Part shown: one piece after another, positions 1 through 51,227 of the stretch
Numbering within the stretch: the stretch's first letter is position 1
How the letters are laid out: each line of letters starts with the position of its first letter
Source: Candidatus Aenigmarchaeota archaeon LH_S7
GTDB lineage: Archaea > Aenigmatarchaeota > Aenigmatarchaeia > QMZS01
DNA: 64,000 nt
Assembly: GCA_023659895.1 (NCBI GenBank)
Contig: JAGXOL010000001.1
Coordinates: 15,757-79,756 of the forward strand
Direction: 5' to 3'
Notes under the pieces: generated by a model
Seen by the model: only the letters and a program-made list of their open reading frames with translations
What the model was told of the DNA's origin: nothing
Database searches by the model: none
Position numbers and translations under genes: made by a program

Positions 1-455
1 TTTTGAGGTGTTTTGTCTCCATAAAGCAAGGTTAGTTTGTTATAACAACCTCTCTTTTGTATTACATATTCGATTAGTGATTTCAAAGGGGCAAGTCCAC
101 AACCCCCACTAATAAGTATAATATTTGTGTGTTCAAACTCATCCATTGGATATCCTTTACCATGAGGTCCTCTAACACCTATTTTATCCCCTTCTTTAAG
201 ATTGAAAAGAGCATTTGTTACATTACCTGTTTTTCTTGCAGTTATCTCAAAATAATTTTTGTTGAAAGGGGAGGAGGAGATCGAGAATGGTGCTTCCCCA
301 ACACCGAAAACTGTGATTAAGACAAATTCACCTGGATCAAAATAGAAATGTTCTCTTAAAATTTTGTTTTCTAGTTCTATTTGAAAAGTTTTCGTGTCCT
401 CTGTCTCTTTTATTGTTTTTTTGATTTTCCCAATATTTGGTGTATATATTTTCAT
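1..455 (-). CDS. FAD/NAD(P)-binding oxidoreductase subunit of a [NiFe]-hydrogenase/sulfhydrogenase (gamma, HydG/AsrB-like); start ATG at 455, 3' end runs off window
   Basis: Minus-strand translation from 455: MKIYTPNIGKIKKTIKETEDTKTFQIELENKILREHFYFDPGEFVL...GGCGLAP, typical ferredoxin-NADP-reductase-like gamma subunit; start abuts stop of upstream HydB-like gene. Confidence 0.55.
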   Translation of the reverse strand, partial: MKIYTPNIGKIKKTIKETEDTKTFQIELENKILREHFYFDPGEFVLITVFGVGEAPFSISSSPFNKNYFEITARKTGNVTNALFNLKEGDKIGVRGPHGKGYPMDEFEHTNIILISGGCGLAPLKSLIEYVIQKRGCYNKLTLLYGDKTPQ

Positions 456-4521: not shown

Positions 4522-5820
4522 ATGGATTATGGAACAATTGGTTTTATCATCTTCATTGTTGCTTTAGTCATCCTTGTATATTGGAAGAAAAAAAATCTCC
4601 AAATTCAGGGAGTTTTCGTGATGTTGAAGACAAAAAAACTTAGAACCCTAATAAAGAGAGCTGTAAAAAAATATCCTTTCTTTTGGAAAACTTATTTTAC
4701 AACAGGTGTTATAGTTGGATTCCTTGCAATGGTATTTGGAATTTTTTTCCTTCTTAACAATGTAATCAATCTTTTACAGGGTTTTGGTGCTCCCACTCTT
4801 TCTTTGGTTTTTCCAGGGCCAACATCTTCTTTTTCAGCTCATCCAGGTGTTCTTTTAGTTCCTATATGGTACTGGTTGATAGCAATTGTAGTTTTGATTT
4901 TCCCTCACGAGCTTTCTCATGGTTTAGCGCTAGCTTTAAACAAGTTGAAAATTAAGTCTTTAGGTGTTTTCTTGCTCTTGTTCATACCTGGAGCTTTTGT
5001 TGAGCCAGATGAAAAACAATTAAAGAAAGTAAACAAGTTCAAAAAATTGCAAGTGTATGCAGCAGGTTCTTTTTCAAATATTGTTACGGGGATTATTCTT
5101 GTTTTAATTTTCCATCTTTTCCTGTTCACAGCTTTCTCTTATGAAGGTGTAGATTATGGATATGCAAGAGATATGGTTAATAGGTCAGAAATAATAGAGA
5201 CCAATAATTTGTCTGAGGGTTTGCTTGAAATAAAAACTTCCCAAGACACTTATTTAGCAACAAAATCTATTTTGGATAGACAAGTTAATAATACAAATCT
5301 TTTGTTGTTTGATGACTGGCCAGCTGCGAGAAATAATTTATCAGGAAGTATCAAAAAGATAGATAATATTGAAATAACTTCTTTTGATAAAATGACCAAG
5401 GTTTTGTCTAATTATAAACCAGGTGATAATATTAAAATAGAGACTTCAAAAGGAATTAATAACATTACTTTAGCAAATCGTAAGGGTAAAGCATTTCTAG
5501 GAATAACTTACCCTCAAGGATATACTTATATTCTTAACATGATTCCTAGCGAAACAGTGGTTGATTTTGTATTCCCACAGAGCTACAAGAATTATGAATT
5601 GCAAGCTCTCCCAGAAAGCGTGGGAAATTTCCTTTACATGCTAATATTTTTTATCTACAATGTTTGTTTTGGTGTCGCAATCATAAATATCTTACCAATA
5701 AAACCATTGGATGGAGGTTTGATAACGGAAACTTTAACTAATAAGAGATTTGCTAACGCAATTTCATTAATTTTCTTTGCAATCTTGGTCTTTATCATAG
5801 CAGGACCTTACTTATTGTGA
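4522..5820 (+). CDS. site-2 protease family (M50) intramembrane zinc metalloprotease with PDZ-like insert
   Basis: Polytopic; HELSHG (HExxH) in TM helix and C-terminal NILPIKPLDGG (LDG motif). Confidence 0.7.
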   Translation: MDYGTIGFIIFIVALVILVYWKKKNLQIQGVFVMLKTKKLRTLIKRAVKKYPFFWKTYFTTGVIVGFLAMVFGIFFLLNNVINLLQGFGAPTLSLVFPGPTSSFSAHPGVLLVPIWYWLIAIVVLIFPHELSHGLALALNKLKIKSLGVFLLLFIPGAFVEPDEKQLKKVNKFKKLQVYAAGSFSNIVTGIILVLIFHLFLFTAFSYEGVDYGYARDMVNRSEIIETNNLSEGLLEIKTSQDTYLATKSILDRQVNNTNLLLFDDWPAARNNLSGSIKKIDNIEITSFDKMTKVLSNYKPGDNIKIETSKGINNITLANRKGKAFLGITYPQGYTYILNMIPSETVVDFVFPQSYKNYELQALPESVGNFLYMLIFFIYNVCFGVAIINILPIKPLDGGLITETLTNKRFANAISLIFFAILVFIIAGPYLL

Positions 5821-5832
5821 AAAAAGAAAAAA

Positions 5833-6072
5833 TTAAATGCGAGATTCTTCTTCGTATTTATCCATCACATAATTCACTGAAATATGTCCATTATTCTTGC
5901 TTACTCCAGAGATCTTTATGTAATTGTCTCTACCAGCTTTTATAGGGTCTTCTAGTATATCATTTTCCATTTTGTTTATCATATTATCTGCTTCCTCTTT
6001 ATTATTGAAAAGTTTGTAGAAATTATTTTCAACCTCTGAACTCTCGAAAAGATTATCTAATGGGATACTCAC
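5833..6072 (-). CDS. hypothetical small protein
   Basis: 79 aa ORF, coding-like composition, no recognisable motif. Confidence 0.3.
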   Translation of the reverse strand: MSIPLDNLFESSEVENNFYKLFNNKEEADNMINKMENDILEDPIKAGRDNYIKISGVSKNNGHISVNYVMDKYEEESRI

Positions 6073-6106: not shown

Positions 6107-6817
6107 TTGGAAATTTTGTATATGGTATTTGTGGTTATTGAAGGAATAGATGCCTCAGGTAAGGCAACACAAACCAAGTTTTTGGTGGAAAGATTAAAGA
6201 AAGAAGGTTATGAGGTGGAAACCATAGATTTTCCTCAATATGGAAAAAAATCCGCAGGTCCTTTGGAAAATTACTTGAATGGAAAATATGGTTCTTCAAA
6301 GGAGTTGGGTGCTTACATACCTTCTATTTTCTATGCTTGTGACCGTTTTGATTCTTCCTTCAAAATAAAGAAATGGCTTGATGAAGGTAAAATTGTTATT
6401 GCTGACAGGTATATTGCTTCAAACATAAGTCATCAGGGTGGAAAAATCAAAAATCAAGAGGAAAGAAGGAAATACATAGAATGGCTTTACAATCTTGAAT
6501 ATAAAATTTTCAAGATACCTAAACCAGATTTTACAATTATTTTGAAGACTTCTCCTGAATTTTCAGAGAGATTAGTTGGAAAAGGTTATGATAAGGGAAA
6601 GGAAGAAAAACGAAAATCTTATCTGGGTAATAAGAAGAAAGATATCCATGAGAAAGATAAAGAGCATTTGCTCAATACATTGAATTCTTATTTAGAAGTA
6701 GCTGAAATGTTTCCTGATGATTTTAAGATTATTAACTGTTTGGAAGAGGGGGAATTATTATCAAAAGAGAAGATTCATGAAAAGGTTTGGTCTGTTGTTA
6801 GAAAATTGTTATCTTAA
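6107..6817 (+). CDS. tmk: thymidylate kinase-like (dTMP kinase)
   Basis: P-loop VVIEGIDASGKATQ and DRYIASNISHQG motif; alternative start at M6 possible. Confidence 0.65.
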   Translation: MEILYMVFVVIEGIDASGKATQTKFLVERLKKEGYEVETIDFPQYGKKSAGPLENYLNGKYGSSKELGAYIPSIFYACDRFDSSFKIKKWLDEGKIVIADRYIASNISHQGGKIKNQEERRKYIEWLYNLEYKIFKIPKPDFTIILKTSPEFSERLVGKGYDKGKEEKRKSYLGNKKKDIHEKDKEHLLNTLNSYLEVAEMFPDDFKIINCLEEGELLSKEKIHEKVWSVVRKLLS

Positions 6818-8016
6818 TCTTTGAATTTTTCAAAACTTTTTTCCAGAGCTTTTATACCAGGTAATTTTTTTCCTACAAGAAAATCAACAAAAGATCCTCC
6901 ACCCAAACTTACATAACCTAATTTGTTGAAATCAATTCCTAATTTCCCCAAAGCATCAGTTGTGTTTCCACCTCCAACTAAAGAATTTTCTCCCAACATT
7001 GAAAAAATATCATAGGTTCCTAACTGAAAATTTTCATTTTCATAAACCCCTGCAGGTCCCTTAACACAAACAAATTCAGAATCTTGAACTATTTTATTAT
7101 AATTTTTAATTGTTTCTTTACCAATATCAAGAATTTGTTTTTCAGAAGGAAGTTCCTCAACAGAAATCTCAACTCTATTATTTTCATTTTCTATAGCTAA
7201 GTCTACAGGCAATATTATTTTTTTACCTAATTTTTCTAACAAAATTTTTGCTTCATCTAAATATTGTATGTAACCTTTGTCATGAAGAAACTTTTCTGTA
7301 TGACCTAAATCATAACCTTTTGCTATCAGGAACAACAAAGAGATGACACCTGTAACAGGGAAAACAATATCTTTTTCACCCCATCTTTTCATCAGTTTTA
7401 TAGGTTCTTTTGGTTTTGCTCCACCTAAAATGAAACATGATTTGGAACTTTCAAGTTTCTTTGAAAACTTTTGCAGTTCTTTTAATTCTCTCTCGAAAAC
7501 ATGGCCCGCGATACAAGGCTTTAATCTTGAGAATCCAACAACGCTTGCGTGACACCTGTGAACAACTGAAAAAGCATCTAAAACAAAATAATCAATTAAG
7601 GGAGCTAGTGATTTGACTAATTCACTTTCAGAGTGTTCCTCAATATTTTTTTCAATTTTTTCATCTTCATAAAAACGTGTGTTATCTAGTAGAATTATAT
7701 CTCCTGCTTTCATTTCCTTTATTCTTTTCAACTCTTCCCTAAATTCCAAGAAACCCACAGAATCCAAATATTTATTCAATAGTTCAGTGTGTTTTTCCAA
7801 AGATATAAAATCATCTTTGCCTTTTCTTCCCTGATGTGCGAGTAAAACAATTTTTGCACCCTCTTCATGTAATTTCTTAATAGTTTCAATGTGTGCTTTT
7901 AGTCTTGCATTTTCAGATAACCTTTTATTTCTGGAATCATAAGGTAAATTTAAATCTACTCGCACAGCAACAGTTTTGTTTTTCAAGTTAAAATCCTTCA
8001 AGGTAAAGAACTCCAT
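6814..8016 (-). CDS. pgk: phosphoglycerate kinase; listed ORF is over-extended, real start at MEFFTLKDFNLKNKTVAVRVDLN
   Basis: Canonical PGK N-terminus (RVDLNLP), about 400 aa; upstream extension would overlap a tRNA. Confidence 0.85.
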   Translation of the reverse strand: MEFFTLKDFNLKNKTVAVRVDLNLPYDSRNKRLSENARLKAHIETIKKLHEEGAKIVLLAHQGRKGKDDFISLEKHTELLNKYLDSVGFLEFREELKRIKEMKAGDIILLDNTRFYEDEKIEKNIEEHSESELVKSLAPLIDYFVLDAFSVVHRCHASVVGFSRLKPCIAGHVFERELKELQKFSKKLESSKSCFILGGAKPKEPIKLMKRWGEKDIVFPVTGVISLLFLIAKGYDLGHTEKFLHDKGYIQYLDEAKILLEKLGKKIILPVDLAIENENNRVEISVEELPSEKQILDIGKETIKNYNKIVQDSEFVCVKGPAGVYENENFQLGTYDIFSMLGENSLVGGGNTTDALGKLGIDFNKLGYVSLGGGSFVDFLVGKKLPGIKALEKSFEKFKD

Positions 8017-8042
8017 AAAAATACAATATGGTTTTAATTTAT

Positions 8043-8154
8043 GCTGGGGTGGCAGAGTCAGGTTAATGCGGTGGACTCGAGATCCACTGGACCTAGTCCG
8101 CGCAGGTAGGTTTTTCTTGAAGAAAATCCCTGTAATCAAATCCTGCCCCCAGCG
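8043..8154 (+). tRNA. tRNA-Ser(CGA), class II, with a 28-nt intron in the T-loop (8108-8135, after T54)
   Basis: Acceptor GCTGGGG/CCCCAGC, 3-bp D-stem, anticodon arm GTGGA-CTCGAGA-TCCAC, variable hairpin GGAC-CTA-GTCC, T-stem GCAGG/CCTGC with loop split T|...|TCAAAT; exons total 84 nt. Confidence 0.7.
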
Positions 8155-8506
8155 TCTAAGTTTACTATATATGTTTACCCTCACTAAAGAGATAGCAAAA
8201 GAAGGGTAAATATGGAAGGCCAAGACTATTGGGAAGATTATTATAAGAGAAAAGTTAAAAAGATAAATAAAGACAAGAAAATTCTTATAACTTTCTTAAA
8301 AAATAAGAGGTCTGAAAGGGTTGGATATAGAAGGATTATAAGGTGGTTTGCCTTTAGATACAAAAACAACAATTGAGGAAAAGAAAAGAAACTTTAGATA
8401 ATTTAAGTACTGAATCCCTAAAGAAAGATAATGTTAGAGAGGCTTTTAAGGAAGCAATAAAGGAATTAATTAGAGAGAATCCTGATTTGCTGCAGGGATT
8501 GAAACT

Positions 8507-8947
8507 TTAATATTCTTCTTTCACAGTAGATACAATTTCTTCTAATCTTACAGACTGGTCAGGGGATACAGCCTCTGACTTTCCAACTGGCTTATTTATA
8601 AAACAAAGACAAGGTTCCGGGTCTCCCAAAATTTTAAAATTATGTCCACCATGTCTATGTGTAGCTCCACTAACTTTATTAATTCCTTTAATTTTTGATC
8701 GAGTGGTGAGCAACTGCGAACCAAATAAATAATCTCCTTTGGTTGCATGTGGAGTAAATTTATAAACTTTTAATTTTTGTGAAAATTTAGTTTTATTTTC
8801 ATCTGTTGTCTCCTTTTTTATACCACACATAGCATGCTTATATAGTATTATTTTTTTTATACTTTCATGTTCTTTCTGACACTGAGCTTCAAATACTTTT
8901 GATATAATACAGTCATCCACACCTGTAAATTTATTTAAAAAGAACAT
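8507..8947 (-). CDS. hypothetical protein
   Basis: 146 aa ORF, no confident family assignment. Confidence 0.3.
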   Translation of the reverse strand: MFFLNKFTGVDDCIISKVFEAQCQKEHESIKKIILYKHAMCGIKKETTDENKTKFSQKLKVYKFTPHATKGDYLFGSQLLTTRSKIKGINKVSGATHRHGGHNFKILGDPEPCLCFINKPVGKSEAVSPDQSVRLEEIVSTVKEEY

Positions 8948-8949
8948 CT

Positions 8950-9222
8950 TTATTCAAATCTTATTTTTCCTTCTTTTTCTAAATCTTTAAGAATAAAATG
9001 TGCTTCTTCAAATTTAATATTAAATCTATTAGCAATTTGTGAGGTGGTTGGTTTGCCCTTCTCTTTTATAAGTTCAAATACTTTTTGCTTTAATTTTTTA
9101 GATAAAAGTTCTAATCTGTCAGGTTCTGTTGAGAGTATCTCGTTAGGAATTGTTAAAACTAAATTAGAAATATCTGATACATTTGCCAGGTCTGGCACCA
9201 AAACTTGAAAATACTCAAACAT
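8950..9222 (-). CDS. small winged-helix DNA-binding protein
   Basis: 90 aa; C-terminal TTSQIANRFNIKFEEAHFILKDLEKEGKI resembles wHTH recognition helix/wing. Confidence 0.4.
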   Translation of the reverse strand: MFEYFQVLVPDLANVSDISNLVLTIPNEILSTEPDRLELLSKKLKQKVFELIKEKGKPTTSQIANRFNIKFEEAHFILKDLEKEGKIRFE

Positions 9223-9223
9223 A

Positions 9224-9589
9224 TTAACTTTCCTTTTTGTCTACGACTTTTTTCATATCCGGCTCAAAGGATTCTCCAAATTTTTCTATTTCATCAGCCA
9301 ACTTTCTTTTTTCATCTGCAGAGCATTCAAATAAGTTCTGAAGTTTTCTGTTAAGCATAGATGATTTAAGAATAAAGTTTATTAGAATATCTTTTTGTTC
9401 ACTTGTTAATTTTTCAGATATTTCCTCAATTAAATTTGGATTATCTTTTAATTCATCAATTATTTTATAAGCATCCGGGTATTTATCCTGAATATCAGCA
9501 AGTTTTCTAATAGCCATTGAATTACCTTTTAAAAATAAACTATAAAAATCAGTAAAATCAACAAAAAAACTATTATCTATTTCCTTCAT
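9224..9589 (-). CDS. hypothetical protein (operonic with 8950-9222)
   Basis: 121 aa; stop/start 2 nt from downstream gene. Confidence 0.35.
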   Translation of the reverse strand: MKEIDNSFFVDFTDFYSLFLKGNSMAIRKLADIQDKYPDAYKIIDELKDNPNLIEEISEKLTSEQKDILINFILKSSMLNRKLQNLFECSADEKRKLADEIEKFGESFEPDMKKVVDKKES

Positions 9590-9747
9590 AATAATACCTA
9601 TAAAATATTTATAGGTCTATCTAAATTAATCTTCAAACCCTGTTGTTGCCCCAACTTCTTCTTCAATACCATCATCTTTCATAATGATTATTTTAACAGG
9701 TCCTTCAGAATGTTCAACTTCAAATTTCTGTGGGTCTCCTCTGAGTT

Positions 9748-9936
9748 TTGTTGCCGTTTCAAAAAAGTCCTTTTACCGGTATTACTGAGATTATCGAAGC
9801 CTATGAAAAAGATAATCCAATTGATTACAAATCTTTTGGTATTCCAAGAAAGAAATTAAGAGAAGTTCTTTCAACTTATTTTGAAAATCCAGATGAACTT
9901 ATCGACAAAGCACTGAAAGAAGGTATTATTTACTAA
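9748..9936 (+). CDS. hypothetical small protein
   Basis: 62 aa ORF. Confidence 0.25.
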   Translation: MLPFQKSPFTGITEIIEAYEKDNPIDYKSFGIPRKKLREVLSTYFENPDELIDKALKEGIIY

Positions 9937-10235
9937 TCGAGAAGTGGATTTTTAAGAGTTATTTAACTCTTTCGGTTCGTTGTTATCATCTTATTTATCT
10001 TTCTTTTTATATTTGGATTGTCTATAGGACTAAACTTTAAATTTACTCTTAATTTAGAAAATAAATCTAAAAGAAACTAATTTCTAATAGTTGGATATAT
10101 GGTTTTTCAAAGATATCGGTAAGATAATTCCAAAGCAATAGCCAAAGTAGTGAGACACTATATTTATTATATGTCCACCAGAAATAAAAGTGGGTGGAAA
10201 CAAAATCAGTGCTCCAAATAATACGAAATTGGTAG

Positions 10236-10901
10236 TTAAGCCAAAAAGGAGTATATTTTTATTATCCTTTCTTTACTGCTCTTACTTATTTTGAAAAATT
10301 TAAAAAGAGGTTTTTTTATAATATCTCGATTTGGTGCCTCACCCAAAAAGAAAAAAATTGATACTGCTAAAATAACTATAAAAGGTAAACTGCCTATATA
10401 ATAGAGAGCAGGAAAAGAAATATTAAACAAAAATATTGACCACAAAAAAGAAGAATTTAGAGAAATTTTCCACGAGTATTTTATATAATTATAAACAGAA
10501 AAAAGAAGATAACCTAGAAATCCAGCATCAATCGCTGAAAAACCTAAAATAGGTGGAAGATTTGGTAAAGTATAAACAATTAGCAAAGAATTGAGAATTG
10601 GTAGTATTGTAACAAATGTTAAGGTAACAACATAGAGCCTTTTTCTATTATTCTCAAACTTGAAAATCAAGAAGATAAATAAGAAGTAATAGATCAAATT
10701 TCCTGCAAAATGAAAAATCTCAGTATGTACAAAATTTGAGAAGTAAATGCTTATTAAAGTTGGATTTGATGGCTGCAAAATAAAACATTCTTGGGGGAAA
10801 AGAAAAAGAAAATTAAGAAAAAGCGGAATGAAAGTGAAGAAAATTAAATAGTCAATTTTTTGTCTTGGTTTTGTAGAACTATAATTCTTAAGCATTATCA
10901 A
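10236..10901 (-). CDS. polytopic membrane protein, possible CPBP/Abi-like intramembrane protease; last gene of defence operon
   Basis: About 6 predicted TM segments; VHTEIFHFAGN (HxxxN-like); start overlaps PLD-SNF2 stop as ATGA. Confidence 0.45.
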   Translation of the reverse strand: MIMLKNYSSTKPRQKIDYLIFFTFIPLFLNFLFLFPQECFILQPSNPTLISIYFSNFVHTEIFHFAGNLIYYFLFIFLIFKFENNRKRLYVVTLTFVTILPILNSLLIVYTLPNLPPILGFSAIDAGFLGYLLFSVYNYIKYSWKISLNSSFLWSIFLFNISFPALYYIGSLPFIVILAVSIFFFLGEAPNRDIIKKPLFKFFKISKSSKERIIKIYSFLA

Positions 10902-13900
10902 GATATAAAATCAATTGTAACTAATTGCAATTTTGATTTATCAAAAGGTTCAATAATAGGTTTCTTAAATATTCCCTTTTCCATTAAAAAGTTATTCAGT
11001 TCTTCAACCCTTTTCTTCCAATTACCCTCCTTTTTATATTGTTTCCAAATTCTCCTTAGTATCTGCAATCTCTTTTTTGTTAGAGGGATTTTTTGTAATT
11101 TATCTAGTGTAATATCCCATACTCTCTGTATATTATTATCTGAAGGAAATTCTTCTAAATAATCATTAATTTCTTTTTCAATTGAATTAGCCATTTTTTT
11201 TACAAAAGTGGAACTTTTTGATTCGCTATGTTCTTTAAATTTTGTATCACTTTTTTGGCTAGAATATACTTCATTGTAATCTTCTTCTATTTTATTCAAG
11301 ATAGTTCTATTAACCTCATATATCTTCTCAAAGAAATTGGGAATAACCCTCACCTCTTTTTGTTTACAAGCTATGAAATCAATTATCTTTGTTTTACTGG
11401 TTATTATTGAATCTGTATTTATATCATATAAATACCAAAAATGGAAATCTTTACCATATTTGTAATAGAAAAATATGCCCGAAATTTTGTTTTTCTTTAA
11501 TCCACTATAAACACCATAAGGTATCTTTTCCAATTCCTCTAGAGCTTTATTCTTCATGAAATCCTTTAATGGCTGGTAAAATTTCTCACCACCACCAAAA
11601 GCATCTTGTTCTACTTCTGCGAATATTTTGGGATCTTTTCCTTTAATCTTTCTAATAATCCCAAAAACCTTGGGATGAATTTCTTCTCCCAAGATAGTTT
11701 GATCTAACCCTACCGATTTATCAATATCAATAATTTTATTCTGCAGAATTTCAACCAATTTTAGCAACTCTTCTAACTCATCTTCTGGAAAAAAATTGTA
11801 GACAAATATTTTTTTGTAGGGTGAACCAATCCTGTCTATTCTTCCTGCTCTTTGAATCATCCTTGTTGGATTCCAATGCAAATCATAATTAATGAGATAT
11901 TTAGCTGTTTGGAGATTTTGTCCTTGTGACAAAACATCAGTACTCATTAAAATATCAATCTCTTTTTTGAAGAATTTTTCTATAATCTTTTCTCTTTGTT
12001 GAGGATTTTTGTTCGTCAAACCTGAACTCGAAACTGCTTCAATTTTCAGTTTTGAGAATTTTTTATCCTTTATTATTTCATTATAAATATAATTTAAAGT
12101 ATCTGCATAATAAGTAAAAAGAACTATCTGCCCATCTTTTGACAAATTTAATAGTTTATCTTTAAGAACATTTAATTTAGAGTCATCTTCTGGTTTGATG
12201 GTATTTACTTTTTCAAGAATTTTGCTTAATAATTTAATGTCTTTGTCTATATCTCTAAATAAATCTTCTATTTTATAAAGGTCTTTTTCAAAAACGTCAA
12301 GTTTTGTTCCTTCCAAAGATTCGAATTTATCTAAATACTCTTCTATATCCTCCTCACTTATTGATCCAAAATTCTTCAATAACTTACTAAAATCTTTTTT
12401 CCCTAGGATTTTACCTGCTTTTAGGCTCTTCTTTAATTTTTCCAAAAAGTCTATGTGTCTCTTAATGCTTATCCGAAAAGATTCTACACTACTCTCTAAT
12501 CTTTTAAATAAAATTGTCCTGAAAATACCCCCAATCTGAATCATCCTGTTTAAAACAAACATTTCTTCTTCTGTCTTTACCCCTCCTTCTTTATATTCAA
12601 GTAGATGATAATAAGCCATTTTTAGATTTGAAATTATATCAGAAATCTCTTTATACATGCCTTTGTAAGCATTATCTAATTGATAGTTTATGTTTTCAAG
12701 AACTCTTTCCGGAAAAATTATCTTTTTCTGCTCTCCGTTAATCTCTATATAAGCATCAGGATAATTTTTAATAATATAGTCTCTTGTTCTTCTTATTGAG
12801 ATTTCATTTAGTAAGTCATTTAGTAAAGAAGGGTTGTCCTTTGCCTGTTTAAAGAACTTGAATAAATCGGGAATATTTTCTTTAATAAATGAAGATCTAT
12901 CCATCAAGATAAGAAGCATAATCTGCCAGTATAAATCCCAGAGGGTATTGTTTATTGGGGTAGCAGTTAAGAAAAGCATATAAGGTTTTTTACCCTTTTT
13001 AGCAATATTGTCATTAACCAAAGCGAAAAAATTCTCCCACCTGTTTGACAATGGATTTCTGAAATTATGGCTTTCATCAACAACTATTAATTCTACATCA
13101 TCAAATCTTCCGCCAAGAGTTTTCTTTGCTTTTTCTAAGAAATTTTCTGAGGCTAAATTTTCCTGAGACAAAATATTCTCTTTAACATCTATCTTTTTCA
13201 TCTCCTTAGCCCACATCCCCATTAACTGAGCAGGGCAGATTATCAGAATGTTTTTTCTTTCGTAGTATCCTATTCTTTCAAGAATTTTTTTAGCAATCCA
13301 AGTTTTACCTAACCCCACAGAATCAGCAACAATACAACCACCATATTTCCTCAATCTCTTCCATATTCTTTCAATAGCAGCATCCTGAAATTGAGCCAAA
13401 TTTACTTTAGTCTCTGGAAGTCCTTTTGGTTTTTCATTTTTTCCCTCTTCTACAACATCATCTTTTTGAAATTCATACAATGTCTTGATATAGATATCGT
13501 AAGGTAAATATTCCTTGCTTCCAAATCTGGAATTTTCCAAAATTTCTATAAGCTCATCTTTAAAGTCTCTTGATTCTGCCCAGAATTTTTCAAACCATTC
13601 TTTTCTTGTGAAGATTGCCTGGGATTTCTGTTTCCAGGTGTTTAATTCTCCATACCTTGTTAGTCCTGCAGCAGTAAAGTTAGATGAACCAATAACTATC
13701 CTATCATCAAAAATATAGGCTTTTCCATGCAGGAACTTTTCAAATAATCTAATTTCAACATTCTTTCTTTTTAGAAATTCAATAAACAACTTTATTGTTT
13801 TATCCTGCTCTTTTGTTAAATCAAAGCCTTCAATCTCTTTTCTTATTTCCTTTAAAAGAACGTCTCCAAGAGTTGTTTCATTCTGAATTTCCGGGGTTTT

Positions 13901-14095
13901 TCCAAGTAAAAGCCTGAATCTCTCAACACCATTTAAATTATCTTTGATCATGGCAAAAGCCTGAATATTGAAGAAAGCGGTTGCTATGTCAAAATTTGTT
14001 TTTGGATTCTCTCTTAAAACATTATTCAGGAAACTAATCAACTTGTTTCCTTCGCTGTTGTCTATTATTTCTTTTGGTATTGGCATTTTAATCAC
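10898..14095 (-). CDS. PLD-nuclease domain fused to SNF2-family helicase (DISARM DrmC+DrmD-like fusion)
   Basis: N-terminal HxK(x4)D motif HGKAYIFDDRIVIGSSNFT; helicase motifs GLGKT (I), VVDESHNFRN (II), LFLTATPINN (III), C-terminal QGQNLQ / QRAGRIDRIG (VI). Confidence 0.8.
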   Translation of the reverse strand: MIKMPIPKEIIDNSEGNKLISFLNNVLRENPKTNFDIATAFFNIQAFAMIKDNLNGVERFRLLLGKTPEIQNETTLGDVLLKEIRKEIEGFDLTKEQDKTIKLFIEFLKRKNVEIRLFEKFLHGKAYIFDDRIVIGSSNFTAAGLTRYGELNTWKQKSQAIFTRKEWFEKFWAESRDFKDELIEILENSRFGSKEYLPYDIYIKTLYEFQKDDVVEEGKNEKPKGLPETKVNLAQFQDAAIERIWKRLRKYGGCIVADSVGLGKTWIAKKILERIGYYERKNILIICPAQLMGMWAKEMKKIDVKENILSQENLASENFLEKAKKTLGGRFDDVELIVVDESHNFRNPLSNRWENFFALVNDNIAKKGKKPYMLFLTATPINNTLWDLYWQIMLLILMDRSSFIKENIPDLFKFFKQAKDNPSLLNDLLNEISIRRTRDYIIKNYPDAYIEINGEQKKIIFPERVLENINYQLDNAYKGMYKEISDIISNLKMAYYHLLEYKEGGVKTEEEMFVLNRMIQIGGIFRTILFKRLESSVESFRISIKRHIDFLEKLKKSLKAGKILGKKDFSKLLKNFGSISEEDIEEYLDKFESLEGTKLDVFEKDLYKIEDLFRDIDKDIKLLSKILEKVNTIKPEDDSKLNVLKDKLLNLSKDGQIVLFTYYADTLNYIYNEIIKDKKFSKLKIEAVSSSGLTNKNPQQREKIIEKFFKKEIDILMSTDVLSQGQNLQTAKYLINYDLHWNPTRMIQRAGRIDRIGSPYKKIFVYNFFPEDELEELLKLVEILQNKIIDIDKSVGLDQTILGEEIHPKVFGIIRKIKGKDPKIFAEVEQDAFGGGEKFYQPLKDFMKNKALEELEKIPYGVYSGLKKNKISGIFFYYKYGKDFHFWYLYDINTDSIITSKTKIIDFIACKQKEVRVIPNFFEKIYEVNRTILNKIEEDYNEVYSSQKSDTKFKEHSESKSSTFVKKMANSIEKEINDYLEEFPSDNNIQRVWDITLDKLQKIPLTKKRLQILRRIWKQYKKEGNWKKRVEELNNFLMEKGIFKKPIIEPFDKSKLQLVTIDFIS

Positions 14096-15923
14096 TTTTT
14101 ATGCTATTAAAGTAGCTTTTTAAATTTTCTTCTAAAATCTTATAAATGAAATTGAACATGGGCAAATCGTCATAAATGAAATCTAATATTCCAGTACTCA
14201 TAGAGATTAACTTGTACTTTTTTCCATTAGTTTTGACCTCTTTTTTAAAGTTTTCATGTGAAATTTCAGGCACTTCTTCGTTTTCCCCTTCTTCATAAAT
14301 TTCAACTTCTAAACCATCTTTACTTCCGTCACTTAGATAAAAAAACTGAATTTTTGGTGAGTCTTGGAATGACTTATACTCTTCTTTAACATCAAACTTT
14401 ATCATAACTTTTGATATTCCTTTAAATAAAAGTAATTTTTCTTTAATCTCTGGGAAATTATGGGACATCAGCTCAGAGTAAACTTTTGGTAAGCTATCAA
14501 AAAATATCCTTAGGTTATTTTTGACTGCATCTGGAGAAAATGTATTCCATATCCATCCGCTACCATCTTTTAATCTCGAATAGTCTTTCGGCGAATAAAC
14601 TCTATTTATATCTTTAATTTCTCTTGATTTCAAAAATAGAAACATTTCTTCAAATATCTTTAGTGGGAATCTACCATTTCCGATAGGTATTCTTGGGATG
14701 GAATCATTCTGAGTTATTCTTTCTTTTACCTTTTCTTCTACTTGTTTTCTCTCATTATCCATAATCTGGGAGATTAACATGTCTGGATCAAAGTATGGTT
14801 TCCTATACAGGCAATCTGAGTAATTCTTAATTCCATTTCTCTGATTCTTGATTAAGAATTTAATAGCTTCATCCATCCATATAGGTAAATATTTATAAAA
14901 TGCATATTCTATTTCATTAATATTAAATGCATCCTTTTTATCTAATCCCATCTGTTGATGAAATCTATCTATAAAACCAAAAATAAATTCTTTAGCTAAA
15001 AATTCGCTTACATCATGTTTCAATAATCTGTTTTTTAATAATCTAAGCATTTGAGCTTCAACAATTTCTAGTGCATATCCTTTGGGATTAGATTTTATAG
15101 GATTCTCCGCAAAATGTGCTGTAAAGCCAAGTCCCTCTTTCTCTAACTCTCTGTGCAATCCCTCGTTGACCTCCTTAATCTGAACATCATTTTTATTGGT
15201 AGATATGGGATAAAGGGCATAGTGTATCATATTATCTTCAAAACGATAATACGCTAAGCCGACTTTCCATGAGTTTGGATAAAACCTCTTTTTAATAATC
15301 AGGAATTCATTTTCTAGTAGACTATTAAACGAATCTAAGAAGAAATGAATTTTGATAAAGTCATCTTTAACTATTCTCAAAGCAGGATTTGATTTCTCAG
15401 ATAAATTTTTATAAGAGTCCTTTAGTTTATCGTATTCTTTTATCTTCTTTTTATAAGATTCAGTAATCTTTTTCCAGTCTTCAATATAACTACTATTATT
15501 ATCAATGATGTTCTCTTTTTTGAACGTTATAGTTATTGTTTTTTGATCCTCGGTGTGTAACTCACTTATTAATGAATTATTTACATGAATCCAGAAAGAT
15601 TTATTGTGATTGACATCAACACCAATCAGTAAAACCGGATTACAAGTACTGGCCTCACTATAAGAAATAAGCGAGATAGGACATTGTAATTTGTGCTTAT
15701 CCCCATTTTCTGGTAATGTCCTTATTTGAACTTCTAATTTACCAATGGGCGACCTGTTTCCGTTAACTAATTCTACATACCCGTCAATGTTCGGATACTT
15801 ATCACGTTCTTTTATGTCAGCCTTTACTTTCTCATGATTAAGGAGTTTCTTGAAAGTGTCAACTGCTTGAGTTTCTGCTTTATCAGTATTGCTATATGGT
15901 GCAGCTCTAATTTCTTCATTCAT
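14088..15923 (-). CDS. hypothetical defence-operon protein, possible N-terminal PD-(D/E)xK-like (DUF4365-like) domain
   Basis: 611 aa; N-term YPNIDGYVELVNG...IGKLEVQIRT pattern; no ATPase motifs; translationally coupled to both neighbours. Confidence 0.4.
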   Translation of the reverse strand: MNEEIRAAPYSNTDKAETQAVDTFKKLLNHEKVKADIKERDKYPNIDGYVELVNGNRSPIGKLEVQIRTLPENGDKHKLQCPISLISYSEASTCNPVLLIGVDVNHNKSFWIHVNNSLISELHTEDQKTITITFKKENIIDNNSSYIEDWKKITESYKKKIKEYDKLKDSYKNLSEKSNPALRIVKDDFIKIHFFLDSFNSLLENEFLIIKKRFYPNSWKVGLAYYRFEDNMIHYALYPISTNKNDVQIKEVNEGLHRELEKEGLGFTAHFAENPIKSNPKGYALEIVEAQMLRLLKNRLLKHDVSEFLAKEFIFGFIDRFHQQMGLDKKDAFNINEIEYAFYKYLPIWMDEAIKFLIKNQRNGIKNYSDCLYRKPYFDPDMLISQIMDNERKQVEEKVKERITQNDSIPRIPIGNGRFPLKIFEEMFLFLKSREIKDINRVYSPKDYSRLKDGSGWIWNTFSPDAVKNNLRIFFDSLPKVYSELMSHNFPEIKEKLLLFKGISKVMIKFDVKEEYKSFQDSPKIQFFYLSDGSKDGLEVEIYEEGENEEVPEISHENFKKEVKTNGKKYKLISMSTGILDFIYDDLPMFNFIYKILEENLKSYFNSIKSD

Positions 15924-15932
15924 TTTAATTCC

Positions 15933-17270
15933 TCAGTACCCATGAGCTTTTATTACCTCTTCTGTCTTTTTGAATAAGTCTTGATTGTATTCTTCTGTAA
16001 GAGCTTTAAGTTCATTCATCAATTTATTGACATCTTCTGTTTTGATATAACCGTTTTGAAAAAAATCTTCTAATTTGTCATTATCAATAACAGAAATTTT
16101 GTATTCAAAATAAAGTTTTACCAAATGTATTAGTGATTTTAGAGGAAATAATACTACTTTTAGGCTAAAGTCTTTTTCTAATGTTTTTATCATCTGATTA
16201 TCTTTTTTATTATTCAAGTCAAAATCATAAGCGAAGATTATAAAATGGGGAACTTTAAATCTAGAAGTAACATAATCCTTAGTATAGGCTTTAAGATACT
16301 TCCTTATTTGATTTTCGTGTTTTTGTAAAGGTAATTTTCCGCCTTTGTAACTCTTAATTTCTAATGGGATTAACAAACTTGGAGCACTTTTTATTACAAA
16401 TATAACTCCGTCTGGCTGATTTTTTTGGCCTAAAAGCTTTGCATTAAAAAGGGTAATTCTCAATAAGTCAGCTACATATTCTTGGAACTTTTCACCTTGA
16501 ACTTTAGAATTCTCTTTTCCTTTTTGTAACGCATAAGTTTCAATGTTCTGTATTATATCCTTCCAGAATTTTTCAATATCTACTAATTTTTTAGTATCTC
16601 TATATTTTAATTCTAATTCTAATTCTTTTCTTTTTTCTGATATTGACATTTCAATAAGTTTGAATTCTTTTTCAAAGAATTTTTTATCAAAAATCTTTTC
16701 TAAAGTTAGCAAACCGATATCTCCCCTAGAAGATAATGTGGACAGGGTAACTTCTGGACTAAAACCAATAAAGACATGAAAATCTGGAGTGTAGTTTTTA
16801 GACCAGCCTTTTAGAATATAAAGATCATTAAACCCTATTTTTTCTGTTGAAACCAAAACTGAAATCTTGAAAACTTTCCCTTGTAATAGAAATTTGTTAT
16901 TTTCTTCAGCTATGATGCTGTAGCCTTTTAGAAATCTAAGAAATTTTTCTTTAAGATACTGAATTGTTTTTTCTGTATCTAAACCAAATTCTCTAAATGC
17001 AATGTTAGAAATTCTTTTTCCACATTTTTTACAGAATGTAAATTCCATTCCTTCGGAAACACATGCAACACCACCACATTCACATTGAATCTCATATATT
17101 TTAGTAGCTCTAAGCTCCTCTAAATCATTCTTATCAAAGAACTTTATGATGCTATCTCTTTTTACAGATAATTTTCTAGATAATTCTAAGTCTGTAAAAT
17201 GCTTATCTGTTCCTTTGGATAACATTATTGAGGTAAAGATTACATTATCCTTATTCAAGCTCTTTGACAT
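15933..17270 (-). CDS. zinc-ribbon plus restriction-endonuclease-like (PD-ExK) protein
   Basis: CECGG...CKKCG ribbon near N-terminus; C-terminal QPDGVIFVIK...LIPLEIKSYK matches PD-x(n)-ExK nuclease signature. Confidence 0.5.
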   Translation of the reverse strand: MSKSLNKDNVIFTSIMLSKGTDKHFTDLELSRKLSVKRDSIIKFFDKNDLEELRATKIYEIQCECGGVACVSEGMEFTFCKKCGKRISNIAFREFGLDTEKTIQYLKEKFLRFLKGYSIIAEENNKFLLQGKVFKISVLVSTEKIGFNDLYILKGWSKNYTPDFHVFIGFSPEVTLSTLSSRGDIGLLTLEKIFDKKFFEKEFKLIEMSISEKRKELELELKYRDTKKLVDIEKFWKDIIQNIETYALQKGKENSKVQGEKFQEYVADLLRITLFNAKLLGQKNQPDGVIFVIKSAPSLLIPLEIKSYKGGKLPLQKHENQIRKYLKAYTKDYVTSRFKVPHFIIFAYDFDLNNKKDNQMIKTLEKDFSLKVVLFPLKSLIHLVKLYFEYKISVIDNDKLEDFFQNGYIKTEDVNKLMNELKALTEEYNQDLFKKTEEVIKAHGY

Positions 17271-18153
17271 GCTTCAACAAAACCTCCTTCAATTCTTTAA
17301 AAATATCCTTTATCTGTGGACGAAATGTTATTTTACCATTATCATAGAAGCTGATTGGTTTTTTGCTCATGTCCACTTTTTGAGAAATTAACTCTTTAGC
17401 AGATTCTTTAATCTTAATTCCCCTATCTTCAAAAAGCTTCAATGTCTTTTCTACATCAGAGCCTTTTATATGAATTTCATCTGCTCCAGAAAGATTTAAT
17501 CCAGTTGCCTTTACTGATTTGAATCTAATGTTTTTATCTAATTTTCTATATTCCTCTTCATTTATTTTAATCAAGTTTATAGAATCTTCTTTGAGATTAA
17601 AGTGATTTTGAAGTAAATCTTTAACAATTTCAAATTTGTTATAACTACTCGTTCTACATTCTATAATGGATATATCTGAATGATAGATGAAATATAAAGT
17701 GAATGGTCTTCTAAATCTAACATTTATTGGTTCTAATGTATTAGGTTCCTCTACGTTGCTATATTCGTAAGTATGTGAATGAGCATTCACATTAATTATA
17801 CTTTGATTATTCTGGGAAATTATTTTCTGAAATTCAAATATTAAGTCATTATCTTTATCTACAATTTTTTTGCTTTCAATTCCTTTAAACTCTAATTTCT
17901 TGTTTGAATAGGAAAAAAATACAGATCTCTTTTTAAGAAGACTATAATAATTTACGAGATATTCCAGAAGCTGTTTATCTTTTCTATACAATTCATTTAC
18001 AAAATCTTCTTTTTTTCTTGATTTTATGTCTGGAAGTTCCTTTCTTAATCTGCTTATCTTAACAATCTTCAATGCTCTTTCAATTAATTGATTTTTATCT
18101 TTCATCGTCTCAAACTCCCCGCCTTCTCCAATCTCTGCTTCACCAACTCGCAA
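17251..18153 (-). CDS. hypothetical defence-operon protein
   Basis: 300 aa, overlaps flanking genes, no recognised motif. Confidence 0.35.
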   Translation of the reverse strand: MRVGEAEIGEGGEFETMKDKNQLIERALKIVKISRLRKELPDIKSRKKEDFVNELYRKDKQLLEYLVNYYSLLKKRSVFFSYSNKKLEFKGIESKKIVDKDNDLIFEFQKIISQNNQSIINVNAHSHTYEYSNVEEPNTLEPINVRFRRPFTLYFIYHSDISIIECRTSSYNKFEIVKDLLQNHFNLKEDSINLIKINEEEYRKLDKNIRFKSVKATGLNLSGADEIHIKGSDVEKTLKLFEDRGIKIKESAKELISQKVDMSKKPISFYDNGKITFRPQIKDIFKELKEVLLKHVKELE

Positions 18154-21100
18154 ACACTCCAGTAAACCTCTTTCCTCTCCTCCTCCGTCAAGCCGAGTTC
18201 ATCAAAAATAATTTTGTCAAGCTCTGCCCTATCAGGAAGAGGTTTTGGCTCTTGTTCTCGGATTGGTTTTGATGGGTCAAGGCCGAATTCTTCGAAGATT
18301 GAGTGAACTTTTCTCTTAGAAATTTTACCGAAAATTTTTTTTAAGAAAGAAGAATTTATTTTGTTAGGATTTGGTATAAAAAATTTTCTTACTTCATATA
18401 TCATTGGTTTATTTAATCCTTCCCCGAGAGAAAACCTTCCCAAAGTTTCATAAAATAGAAATGAAATTGCCGAATTAAGCATACAGCAAATATTTTCTTT
18501 ATTGTTTTCTTTGAAATATAATCCGTACAAATTATAGTCAAGAAAACAAGTAATGTTGTTAAATGGTACAATAAATCTTTCACCAATTTGACTTGAAAAG
18601 ATAAAATCAGGGGCTTTTACTTCACCTGTAGAATACCAATTGTTTCTTCCTTTAACACTGGGAATCTCAGTATATTTAATCCCGTCTTTCTTTTGTTTCT
18701 CAGCCCACTCTATATAACTTAAAATATTTGTTCCTTTAAGTTGTTTTTTTGATTTATTACAATATAAAACATAGAATCTAAGGTTGCTTTCATTTAATAT
18801 AATAGTTTCATATTCTTTAGGTGTTTTTAAAATTTGTTTAAGATATTCCTTTTCAATACCAAGTTTCTTAATCTTATCTTTATCTAAATAAAAGAATTTA
18901 TTGATTCCGGATTTTATTCCTGGAGAAACTTTAGCAATCTTTCCTAATTCAACTAACTTCCCTTTTCCCTTCTCCAAAATTGTATAGAATATATCTGGAG
19001 CCCTCAGATATTTCCCGCCCCATTTATTGCCTTCATAACTTCCAGCTTTGAATCGGTCTTTTTTATCATAGTTTTCTGGATATTCCCAACCATCTTCAAG
19101 CAAATCTCCTTGTAAAATAGGAAAAACTCTATAATCTTGTGTTGTTTTAACATTCTTCACTAACTCAGTTATGGTTTCTCCTCTTGTTTTGACTTTAGCA
19201 TTTTCAATTTCAATCAAATTCTTTGTATTTAAAACCTCTTCAAATGGTTTTTTGAACATTACAAATTTTGCTGTGTGATTCAACATAGGCCAATCCTTTT
19301 TACCATCAACATTCAAACCTTCTATTCTTTTATCTTTAATTATAGGAGCACCAAACAAAGCAATAATGGTATTAACATCAGCATGAGCAAAACTTCTTTT
19401 TGGATTGTCATAAATTGCAGTTACAGGAGCATACCTTAACAGAAATTCCTGCAGATTCCTACCATAACCTACATCAAGCCATGAATTAGAAGTAATAAAA
19501 CAAAATGTTCCTTTTTCATTCAACAAACCCAAACCATGAAAATAGAAGTAAGTGTAATAATCACTTTTTTTATTTATCTTATTAATAATTGGAAAAATAT
19601 TTTTTACAGACTTAATCAGCTTTTCTTTATATTCTTTTCTATCTTTTAAAGTAATTTCTGCTTTTAATTTATTCGGTGGAGATATCTTTTCCTGTCTCAC
19701 ATAAGGAGGATTCCCTATAACGATATCAAAACCATTTTTGTCCCCGAAGATTTCAGCAAAGTCAATATCCCAGACAAATGGTTTCTTTTCCGGATTTTTC
19801 AGAAGTTCTTTAATTTTCTTTAGTTTTTCAATTTCTTCTTCAAATTGCTGAATTTCTTTTTCTGTTGCATTAATTTTTTCTTTTTCTTTCAGATAAACCT
19901 CAGCCTCAACATTTATCTCTGAATTAAACAATCCTACTTGTTTTCCTTGTTTCTTCATATTATTTTCCAGAGATTCGGTATCTTTTTTTAATCCCTCTAT
20001 TCGTTCATCAATTATTTCCTCAAATAATCTGGTTTCTTCGCTTCTAACTGCTTCAGGAGTCTTGAATTTTACTGTTGGAGAATTTTCAAAATATTTTCTC
20101 TTTTCCTGTTTTAGATTATCTAATTGCTCCCTTAAATGTGGTTTTATATCCTCGTTTGTTCTGAGATTAAAACTAAGCCCCCCAATTTCCTGAATTAATG
20201 AATCTCCAACCCTTAGATTAAGATTTAAATTAGGTAACAGAGGGTGTTTTCTCAATTCCTCTTTTTTAAATTCTCCTTCAACAATCAATTGCAACCACAA
20301 TCTTAATTCTGCTGCATGACTTGCCCAAGGCATTACATCAACACCATAGAGAGAATACTGAAGAATTCTCTTTTTCAACTCAAAATCCGTCAAATCATTT
20401 TTTATATTTGCATACACCATTCTGTAAAGTTCTGCGAGAACATTCAACAATCCAACTAAAAAAGCTCCTGAACCGCAGGCAGGGTCTACAGCAGATAAAT
20501 TATCCAGAACTCTTTCTATCTCATACCAAATCTTTTTATCACCAAATTCTTTCTTAAGTTTTTCCTTCTCCTCAGGAGAATCAAAAACAAGATGATAAAT
20601 TTTATCCTTTGGAATGTCAGGCAAATGTTTTGACAAATATTCAACTATTACTCTTCTGCACATGAAATCAACTTCAACTCTCGGAGTGTAGAAAATACCT
20701 AAATCATTCCTGTCATAAATCTCCTCAGCTACATTAGCCAAAGACTCATAGACATAACCAATCATCTGAGGATCAACAGCAACCTCTTGGTCTAAAGGTA
20801 TATCTTCTTTTATTGTAAAATTATATTTCTCAAAGAAATCAAAAATATTCTGAAACAATTTATCAGTTATTTCTACCTTCAATTTATCTAAATCATTTTC
20901 TTTAAATAAGCCACCATTCAGATATGGGGAATTAGAAATTACTCTATTTACTTCTTCCGGGTAACCAGTTATTTCATTTGAACGGTTATTAAAGGCTTTG
21001 AGGAAAATCTGTTTAAGCCATATTTCATAAAATTCATTGGAGTTATATTTTCCCAAATTTTTATACGACTTCCACAACCACCCAACAAATTTTGGATATT

Positions 21101-21788: not shown

Positions 21789-22010
21789 ATTTGAAACTAC
21801 TATTTCTTATGTTCATTATTTATCAAAAGTTATTTTAAGTGTCATAATATATAAATAAAACTAATATGATTATAGGATAAACATATAGTAAACTTCTTAA
21901 TATACCCCCAGCGAAGCCTTTAAAATAAGGAAGACTATAAAGTGAAGAAAGAATCGACAAAAAGCGAATAAGATTTCTTTTAAATATAATTAAAATACCT
22001 ATTTTTTATC

Positions 22011-23585: not shown

Positions 23586-23590
23586 AATAA
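22466..23590 (+). CDS. tnpB: TnpB (OrfB) RNA-guided nuclease-family transposase-associated protein
   Basis: 374 aa; RuvC-like motifs and C-terminal zinc finger CSKCG...CSVCG...NADVNGASNI. Confidence 0.8.
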   Translation: MVRVRKTIKCKIIKPTELKLKHLNKEYNNVQELLQLESKGIEFLPIFHSLKKKVYSANLQQALRFYKKIKPNKEYPISFRKDLLEVRKTDNKLSKYWVKIPTKQRKGGLKLAIKSQPFNFKDYEICESKLFKKKNNWFLNLTVQKEVELNNTYDSVLSLDLGQKYMGVSVMHPSTLMIPKFYGKEVRGIRRNYDYIRKQLGKNKLLKEIKRFGQKEQRKVTDCLHKISNEIVDLALTSNSTIVVGDLKGIRKSAKGKGRKFNRIVSNMPYLELIQMLEYKANWEGIRVIKVNERGTSHTCSKCGNEGSRPKQGVFNCSVCGLKDYNADVNGASNIGNKLSSGYILEDGATLTLPETDVYETSESSDFSRGECQK

Positions 23591-51127: not shown

Positions 51128-51227
51128 TCTAGATCTTAACAATTTATTGTTTAGAGGACAATGGCATGATACAGCCCTGCCACGGCTGTGACCCGGGTTC
51201 GAATCCCGGCCAACGCAGAACAATTTT
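51128..51227 (+). tRNA. tRNA-Gly(GCC) with about 28 nt of insertion(s) between D-stem 5' strand and anticodon stem (51141-51181 region)
   Basis: GCGTTGG-TG-GTCT...CAGCC-CTGCCAC-GGCTG-TGAC-CCGGG-TTCGAAT-CCCGG-CCAACGC-A; D region is 41 nt instead of about 13. Confidence 0.65.

Follow-up and report, generated by a model that had tools for sequence, protein, structure and literature searches.

A tRNA-Ser(CGA) gene with a probable bulge-helix-bulge intron in its T-loop, beside a defence island of an Aenigmarchaeota-like archaeon

The 64-kb stretch of DNA analysed here, referred to throughout as the window, carries a tRNA-Ser(CGA) gene between a divergently oriented phosphoglycerate kinase (PGK) gene and an accessory region that starts at the 3' end of the tRNA. 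Judged by homology and gene content, the host is an AT-rich DPANN archaeon of Aenigmarchaeota-like affiliation, because the PGK homologs with a source name come mostly from Aenigmarchaeota/Aenigmatarchaeota MAGs and the window encodes PCNA, the small subunit of DNA polymerase D, NurA, a diphthamide synthesis protein and archaeal ribosomal proteins. The G+C content at 8043-8154 is 54%, as against 27-37% across the window. The PGK gene and the parts of the tRNA gene are arranged as follows.

6814-8016, minus strand: phosphoglycerate kinase (PGK), divergent from the tRNA with a 27-nt spacer; Pfam PGK domain from residue 6 of the 400-aa form
8043-8154, plus strand: tRNA-Ser(CGA) gene, a 112-nt pre-tRNA with CCA not encoded (Rfam RF00005, and ARAGORN after in-silico splicing)
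8043-8107, plus strand: exon 1, with the 5' strand of the acceptor stem, D-arm, anticodon arm, variable arm, 5' strand of the T-stem and U54 (Rfam alignment)
8078-8080, plus strand: anticodon CGA (sequence, Rfam alignment, ARAGORN)
8108-8135, plus strand: candidate intron of 28 nt at T-loop position 54/55 (absent from the ortholog L002; BHB geometry)
8136-8154, plus strand: exon 2, with U55-U60, the 3' strands of the T-stem and acceptor stem and the discriminator G (unique in the window)

The tRNA family of Rfam (RF00005) spans exactly positions 8043-8154 of the plus strand with its full model (1-71), at 39.4 bits (E = 8.3e-5) against a gathering score of 29. Divided by structural element, the gene reads GCUGGGG-UG-GCAG-AGUCAGGUUAA-UGC-G-GUGGA-CUCGAGA-UCCAC-UGGACCUAGUCCGC-GCAGG-U[AGGUUUUUCUUGAAGAAAAUCCCUGUAA]UCAAAU-CCUGC-CCCCAGC-G. 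In the Rfam alignment, the acceptor stem has 7 bp and the gene ends in a 3'-terminal G (discriminator G73), the D-stem GCAG/AUGC is effectively reduced to 3 bp by a non-standard fourth pair, and the 14-nt variable region, U-GGAC-CUA-GUCC-GC, forms a GGAC/GUCC stem, while the T-loop occupies 34 nt in the gene as opposed to 6 in the model. The cloverleaf, long variable arm, serine anticodon and G73 of a class II tRNA-Ser are all present. A sequence-only reading of this DNA had proposed such a tRNA at these coordinates, with a 28-nt insert dividing TTCAAAT after T54 and the remainder intact, down to the 3-bp D-stem and the 14-nt variable arm; the alignment agrees with it on each point, and the covariance-model check that it suggested places even the unspliced gene above threshold rather than giving it a poor score. 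The letters at the junctions of exon 1, insert and exon 2 (...GCGCAGGT / AGGTTTTTCTTGAAGAAAATCCCTGTAA / TCAAATCCTGCCCCCAGCG) confirm the position of the insert, and the ortholog L002 is uninterrupted there.

ARAGORN called no tRNA on the unspliced segment 8043-8154 and returned an 84-nt tRNA-Ser(cga) once 8108-8135 had been excised. A self-splicing group I or group II intron, or a miniature mobile element, is the least credible of the explanations considered for the excised segment. Group I introns do occur in archaea (PMC6125680). In the Rfam scan of the insert region, however, the tRNA was the sole family to match, and the junctions have neither terminal repeats nor a target duplication. Furthermore, all known self-splicing introns are much longer than 28 nt.

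In the public record, the PGK call (P0001) is a protein of 469 aa at 6814-8223 on the minus strand, with a TTG start at 8223, so that it runs antisense across the whole tRNA. PGK homologs measure about 400 aa, and the length of 469 aa is found in P0001 only; on this comparison, the true start is the ATG at 8016, which gives 400 aa and makes the first 69 codons of the public call a false extension. The tRNA was evidently left unannotated in the public record, and the over-extension of PGK is explained by the intron-containing tRNA having gone undetected. Since the two genes are divergent and only 27 nt apart, their promoters must overlap. The bases just upstream of the tRNA (window positions 8010-8042; TTTAATTTAT followed by G) closely resemble those of the other orthologs, in all of which TTAT directly precedes G+1 of the tRNA.

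The two ends of the insert can be brought together in a bulge-helix-bulge (BHB) structure, the elements of which are listed below; a slash marks the predicted splice site.

8102-8105, plus strand: 5' strand of the central helix H, GCAG (tRNA positions 49-52), pairing with 8130-8133
8106-8108, plus strand: bulge 1, G53 U54 / A; the 5' cut is predicted behind U54, the second of its three nucleotides
8109-8129, plus strand: intron hairpin h', composed of GGUUUUUC (8109-8116), the loop UUGAA and GAAAAUCC (8122-8129)
8130-8133, plus strand: 3' strand of the central helix H, CUGU (intron positions -6 to -3)
8134-8136, plus strand: bulge 2, A A / U55; the 3' cut is predicted behind the second A

This arrangement is a 3-4-3 BHB, that is, a 4-bp helix with two 3-nt bulges, and it falls at exactly the proposed junctions, where the sequence-only reading had looked for a BHB or BHL-like structure. 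The pairs of H (GCAG/CUGU) are G.U, C-G, A-U and G-C, and in h', an inverted repeat within the intron, seven of the eight positions are paired, with a single U-U mismatch. An outer exon-exon helix h is absent, C48 and C56 being unable to pair, and because no such helix can form, the motif is of the relaxed BHBh' type rather than a strict hBHBh'. When 10 start positions were combined with lengths of 24-32 nt, the BHB geometry fitted only one of the 90 possible excisions, namely 8108-8135, which yields the product GCAGG-UUCAAAU-CCUGC; the ortholog L002, which has no intron, possesses exactly this T-arm. Shuffling the 28-nt intron reproduced the junction geometry at a rate of 7.5e-5 (200,000 trials). 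As a control for the cleavage rule, a canonical 37/38 intron was taken from a related locus, the tRNA-Gln(UUG) gene of L007 (5844-5952), in which H is CUUU/AAGG, the bulges are GG/U and AA/A, and h' has 5 bp; the same rule of cutting after the second bulge nucleotide applies.

Unconstrained minimum-free-energy folding of the T-arm did not return the BHB, the energy of which was evaluated as a constrained alternative fold. The BHB conformer stands at -7.5 kcal/mol against -11.1 kcal/mol for the minimum-energy fold in the window, and at -11.0 against -15.7 kcal/mol in the ortholog L003, which makes it 3.6-4.7 kcal/mol less stable than the predicted fold retaining the T-stem. Because it is not the minimum-energy structure, the BHB competes with this T-stem-keeping fold, in which the insert forms an extra hairpin. 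One might therefore picture a mature tRNA that simply retains the insert, with a T-loop enlarged to 35 nt and an additional hairpin. We regard such retention as very improbable: an insert between U54 and U55 would disrupt the T-loop/D-loop elbow of a tRNA, the junctions match the endonuclease motif exactly, and the inserts of orthologs vary in position (59/60) and in length (0-130 nt), unlike a conserved extension.

The orthologs were found through contigs that encode PGK homologs, on which a tRNA-Ser(CGA) gene lies close to PGK. The closest relative, L002, whose PGK is 74-76% identical to that of the window, has an uninterrupted gene with the T-arm GCGCAGGTTCAAATCCTGC and the T-loop TTCAAAT, scoring 59.4 bits. 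L003 and L004, in contrast, carry a homologous 29-nt insert at 54/55, AGGTTGTTAAGTGAAGAACAACTCTGCAA. Exon 1 is identical or nearly so in these three orthologs. In L003, H is GCAG/CUGC with four Watson-Crick pairs, the G.U of the window being replaced by G-C through a one-sided change. Within h', comparison of the window with L003/L004 reveals a U-A pair replaced by G-C (both sides changed), a G-C pair replaced by G.U (one side changed) and the U-U mismatch replaced by U-A. It appears, then, that pairing is preserved between the homologous introns of the window and of L003/L004, with support from covariation at 54/55 that is qualitative, as only two distinct sequences are compared. Taken with the model score, the 3-4-3 BHB and the uninterrupted gene of L002, the homologous insert of L003 and L004 upholds the earlier proposal of an intron after T54.

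The remaining orthologs have inserts at other positions. L007/L008 (9876-9972, minus strand) contain a 13-nt insert at 59/60, and in their minimum-energy T-arm the T-stem is succeeded by the helix UUCA/UGAA and an AAU bulge, while the 5' site lies in a loop; this predicted fold is a relaxed hBH motif. Longer inserts at 59/60 are found in L108 (2791-2937, minus strand; 65 nt, H = UUCA/UGAA) and L111 (1-143, minus strand; 67 nt, H = UUCA/UGGA), while that of L112 (1-101, minus strand) measures at least 37 nt and ends at the contig edge. In these genes, the readable introns (L112 being excepted on account of the contig end) are of the relaxed hBH type and combine the T-stem, a 4-bp helix and an AA/U bulge with a 5' site in a loop. 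The H helices read for 59/60 introns overall are UUCA/UGAA, UUCA/UGGA or UUCG/CGAA, together with an AA/U bulge.

Two inserts per gene were observed in a further set of orthologs. The 268-nt gene of L014 (~9708-9975, minus strand) has a 43-nt insert in the D-loop region together with a 130-nt 59/60 intron, whereas the 367-nt gene of L011 (~5532-5898, minus strand) has a 157-nt insert in the D-loop region and a 115-nt intron at 37/38 (H = CUCG/UGAG), its T-loop being intact. L012 and L013 are like L011, with a D-loop insert longer than that of L014 and a 37/38 intron; the PGK of L011, L012 and L013 is 90% identical to that of L014. Rfam at its gathering threshold misses the tRNA-Ser genes of L011 and L014, and removal of the inserts leads ARAGORN to call tRNA-Ser(cga) in every ortholog tested. 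In total, eight ortholog lineages were recovered besides that of the window; seven of them have inserts, and every testable T-loop or 37/38 insert follows the same helix-bulge rule.

These comparisons also bear on the alternative that a 28-nt insertion into the T-loop has turned the gene of the window into a pseudogene and that the structure at the junctions is a coincidence. Several observations are compatible with such decay: ARAGORN gives no call, the Rfam score drops from the 59.4 bits of the intron-less ortholog to 39.4, the BHB is not the minimum-energy fold, and few UCG codons are to be expected with a G+C content of 31%, in which case a tRNA that reads only UCG could be dispensable to the genome. 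Inactivation is nevertheless improbable in our view. The exons are intact and near-identical to those of orthologs, across relatives in which the adjoining PGK has diverged to 64-76% identity, and L003 and L004 keep an insert at the same site with changes that preserve its pairs. Furthermore, the junction geometry arises by chance at the low rate obtained with shuffled introns, and inserts occur in nearly all of the other lineages, with the testable T-loop and 37/38 ones obeying a common rule.

In a neighbour-joining tree of PGK, a single gene, the window and L002 are sisters and L003 lies nearer to the 59/60 group, whereas the anticodon arm of L003 resembles those of the window and L002. The 54/55 intron seems, from these sequences, to be patchily distributed, and its precise loss in L002 would be the simplest reading of the single-gene tree. 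Among genomes with PGK 64-91% identical, the states of this one gene comprise no intron, an intron at 54/55, an intron at 59/60 (13-130 nt), a D-loop insert and an intron at 37/38. We tentatively raise the idea, which we hold with less than even confidence, that BHB introns may still be turning over in this clade of Aenigmarchaeota, with the tRNA-Ser(CGA) gene beside PGK as a hot spot; if so, the clade would offer a natural series for the gain, movement and loss of archaeal tRNA introns. Introns may possibly have moved between the look-alike contexts CUCGAA/ of the anticodon loop and UUCGAA/ of the T-loop, as the sequences of L011 and L014 suggest. The L011 intron at 37/38 and the L014 intron at 59/60 share their first 8 nt, GCAACCCT, after UCGAA. 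Homology of the two introns was considered and not accepted, their overall similarity being not significant (31 against 21 ± 5 for shuffled sequences), and it is retained as a lead only. A 32-nt hairpin module (ACGRTGCATCATTTTC..GAAAATGAATG) is common to the T-loop intron of L014 and the D-loop insert of L011.

A scan of genome contigs for further orthologs yielded two intron-less tRNA-Ser genes from Thermoplasmata only. In metagenomes, the first search pattern gave no matches and the second gave 93, essentially all of them chance matches in GC-rich contigs, with the exception of L095. The latter (~160-355, minus strand), on an unrelated contig with 43% G+C, is a class II tRNA-like gene that encodes its CCA and agrees with the gene of the window in the sequence of T-arm and acceptor. 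The anticodon region of L095 bears an insert of about 100 nt with AUGAUGA...CUGA, which is C/D-box-like (Rfam sR1 scores only 15 bits), and its T-loop bears a 12-nt insert for which only three of the four pairs of the 59/60 helix form. Neither the intron junctions nor the inverted repeat of the island described below was found in the viral contigs scanned.

Directly downstream of the tRNA lies the accessory region, which the following features delimit and fill.

8146-8154, plus strand: direct repeat copy 1, CCCCCAGCG, made up of the 9 nt with which the tRNA ends
8155-21904, no strand assigned: accessory (defence) island of ~13.75 kb, inserted at the tRNA 3' end and absent from L002
8158-8181, plus strand: left arm of an imperfect inverted repeat, in agreement with the reverse complement of the right arm at 22 of 24 positions
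14088-15923: DUF4365 protein of the island (Pfam/PADLOC)
18102-21788: type IIG-like Eco57I methyltransferase of the island, 1228 aa
21874-21895, plus strand: right arm of the imperfect inverted repeat
21905-21913, plus strand: direct repeat copy 2, CCCCCAGCG, followed by sequence homologous to the 3' flank of the L002 tRNA

The island has a G+C content of 27-30%, compared with 31-34% in its flanks. In addition to the two proteins listed, it encodes a PLD(HKD)+Snf2 helicase at 10898-14095 (PADLOC 'HKD+Snf2', 1.4e-51), proteins of 445 and 300 aa of unknown function, and several small ORFs. The 9-mer CCCCCAGCG occurs twice in the 64 kb against an expectation of 0.01 occurrences, and L002 provides an empty site, where PGK, the tRNA, a 120-aa gene and TIM lie side by side and the island is absent. 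The data support the tRNA 3' end as the insertion site of the island, with duplication of its last 9 nt. For the 19-nt 3' end of the tRNA, TCAAATCCTGCCCCCAGCG, no second copy was found in the window even with three mismatches, and generic repeat finding returned AT-rich chance families only. The suggestion of the sequence-only reading that the tRNA served as an integration site for the accessory region is borne out by the 9-nt repeat and the empty site of L002, while its expectation that the tRNA 3' end would be repeated on the far side of the island holds for the 9-mer and not for the 19-nt end.

The imperfect inverted repeat scores 33, against 14.7 ± 2.5 for shuffled sequences (none of 1000 shuffles reached 33), and its arms are set back by 3 nt and 9 nt from the 9-nt direct repeats, towards the interior of the island. 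Nine ORFs of the island reach 90 aa; Pfam and PADLOC revealed no integrase or recombinase among them, and detected no transposase or casposase in the island. Of the hallmarks of a tRNA-targeting element, the distal direct repeat and the empty site are present, and an integrase was not found among the nine ORFs. The island resembles known genomic islands at tRNA 3' ends in that it starts right after the tRNA, is closed by a distal short repeat, has an empty-site counterpart and carries defence cargo; it differs from typical integrase-borne islands in the length of its repeat (only 9 nt), in the lack of a detectable tyrosine or serine integrase, and in its imperfect inverted repeat of ~24 nt. 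A cut-and-paste transposon was considered and rejected, as the inverted ends do not abut the direct repeats and no transposase was found in the island.

Two TnpB-like ORFs, at 22466-23590 and 34576-35649 (both on the plus strand), have a Cas12f1-like TNB domain and are without a TnpA. The first of these lies outside the island, between the 120-aa gene and TIM, overlaps the start of TIM by 13 nt, and has no counterpart at the syntenic locus L002.

Given that the island abuts the tRNA, and that the closest relative L002 lacks both island and insert, the insert might be viewed as a scar or by-product of the insertion of this neighbouring 13.8-kb element. Such an origin is scarcely credible and was rejected on account of L003 and L004, which have the homologous insert with no island, TIM being located 46 nt from the tRNA 3' end. 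Because these two orthologs possess the intron without the island, we treat intron and island as independent of each other. Moreover, the duplicated segment starts 10 nt beyond the insert and takes in no more than the final 9 nt of the tRNA, and the matches between the insert and the island ends are short and of low complexity, none being convincing.

Considering all of the above, it is highly probable that 8043-8154 is a functional tRNA-Ser(CGA) gene with a non-canonical, 28-nt archaeal BHB intron between U54 and U55, which is removed by the splicing endonuclease EndA with ligation of the exons. What has been observed directly is the gene with its motif, the way the splice sites fit, and how the intron comes, goes and changes position among orthologs; from this, a plausible course of splicing can be outlined. 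The gene is presumably transcribed, and in the precursor the 5' strand of the T-stem (G49-G52) would pair with CUGU of the intron in place of its normal partner. EndA would cleave each bulge behind its second nucleotide, and an RNA ligase would then join ...GCAGGU to UCAAAUCC..., by which the T-loop UUCAAAU would be restored and the T-stem could form. A Pfam scan of ~65 ORFs, covering the 64-kb window only, identified no EndA or tRNA_int_endo domain. By analogy with characterized enzymes, a splicing endonuclease of broad specificity is implied for this lineage, because the motifs here and in the relatives are relaxed.

T-loop introns of this kind are already known. In the DPANN archaeon ARMAN-2, they occur at 53/54 and 59/60, and the EndA of this organism, an enzyme of the epsilon2 type, cleaves them in vitro, including a 13-nt intron at 59/60 (PMC3239211). 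Among DPANN archaea, disrupted tRNA genes are associated with EndAs that carry an L3 loop (PMC5829648), and EndAs of broad specificity cleave relaxed forms of the BHB (PMC3239211, PMC5829648). The present case is similar to ARMAN-2 with regard to its DPANN host, its short T-loop introns, its BHB or relaxed hBH motifs and the failure of standard finders to recognize the genes; indeed, the 13-nt 59/60 intron of L007 matches the tRNA-Cys intron of ARMAN-2 in both type and length. It differs in its Aenigmarchaeota-like phylum, in the position 54/55 as opposed to 53/54 or 59/60, and in a motif made of both bulges and the intron helix with no outer helix.

BHB introns have been established in D-loops, T-loops, variable regions and acceptor stems (PMC3241643, PMC6379350, PMC3218864). 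Non-canonical BHB introns are a feature of Crenarchaeota, especially Thermoproteales, in which close relatives are documented to have gained, lost or repositioned introns, according to summaries of the work of Marck and Grosjean (2003), Sugahara et al. (2008) and Fujishima et al. (2010) (PMC3218864, PMC4033280, PMC3241643, PMC6379350, PMC8450103). The crenarchaeal introns share with those described here the D-loop, T-loop, variable-region and acceptor-stem positions and the marking of splice sites by 3-4-3 BHBs or relaxed variants. The crenarchaeal cases, as summarised there, belong to TACK archaea that possess an (alpha-beta)2 EndA with a Crenarchaea-specific loop, whereas the host considered here is an AT-rich DPANN archaeon. 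tRNAscan-SE 2.0 detects non-canonical introns by default, using BHB covariance models (PMC8450103).

Current understanding is not overturned by these findings, in which the lineage and the diversity of intron states within one gene are modestly new. They add an Aenigmarchaeota-like lineage to the list of those with non-canonical T-loop introns, and position 54/55 may be an addition to the catalogued T-loop intron sites. The unusually fast change of intron position and length in a single gene bears on the origin and loss of archaeal tRNA introns. There is also a consequence for annotation: when a gene such as this one is missed by ARAGORN and overwritten by an extended PGK, the tRNA inventories of DPANN archaea are under-counted and a decoder of UCG seems to be missing.

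Two further observations were made elsewhere in the window. ARAGORN calls a tRNA-Gly(GCC) at 51145-51216 (plus strand), which scores 25.2 bits in Rfam, below the gathering score of 29, aligns with model positions 7-64 only, and is atypical in having non-standard pairs in its D-stem. Finally, the RNase HII encoded at 46782-48899 (minus strand) is a protein of 705 aa that contains an intein with a LAGLIDADG homing-endonuclease domain, while its relatives in L109 and L110 measure 211 aa.
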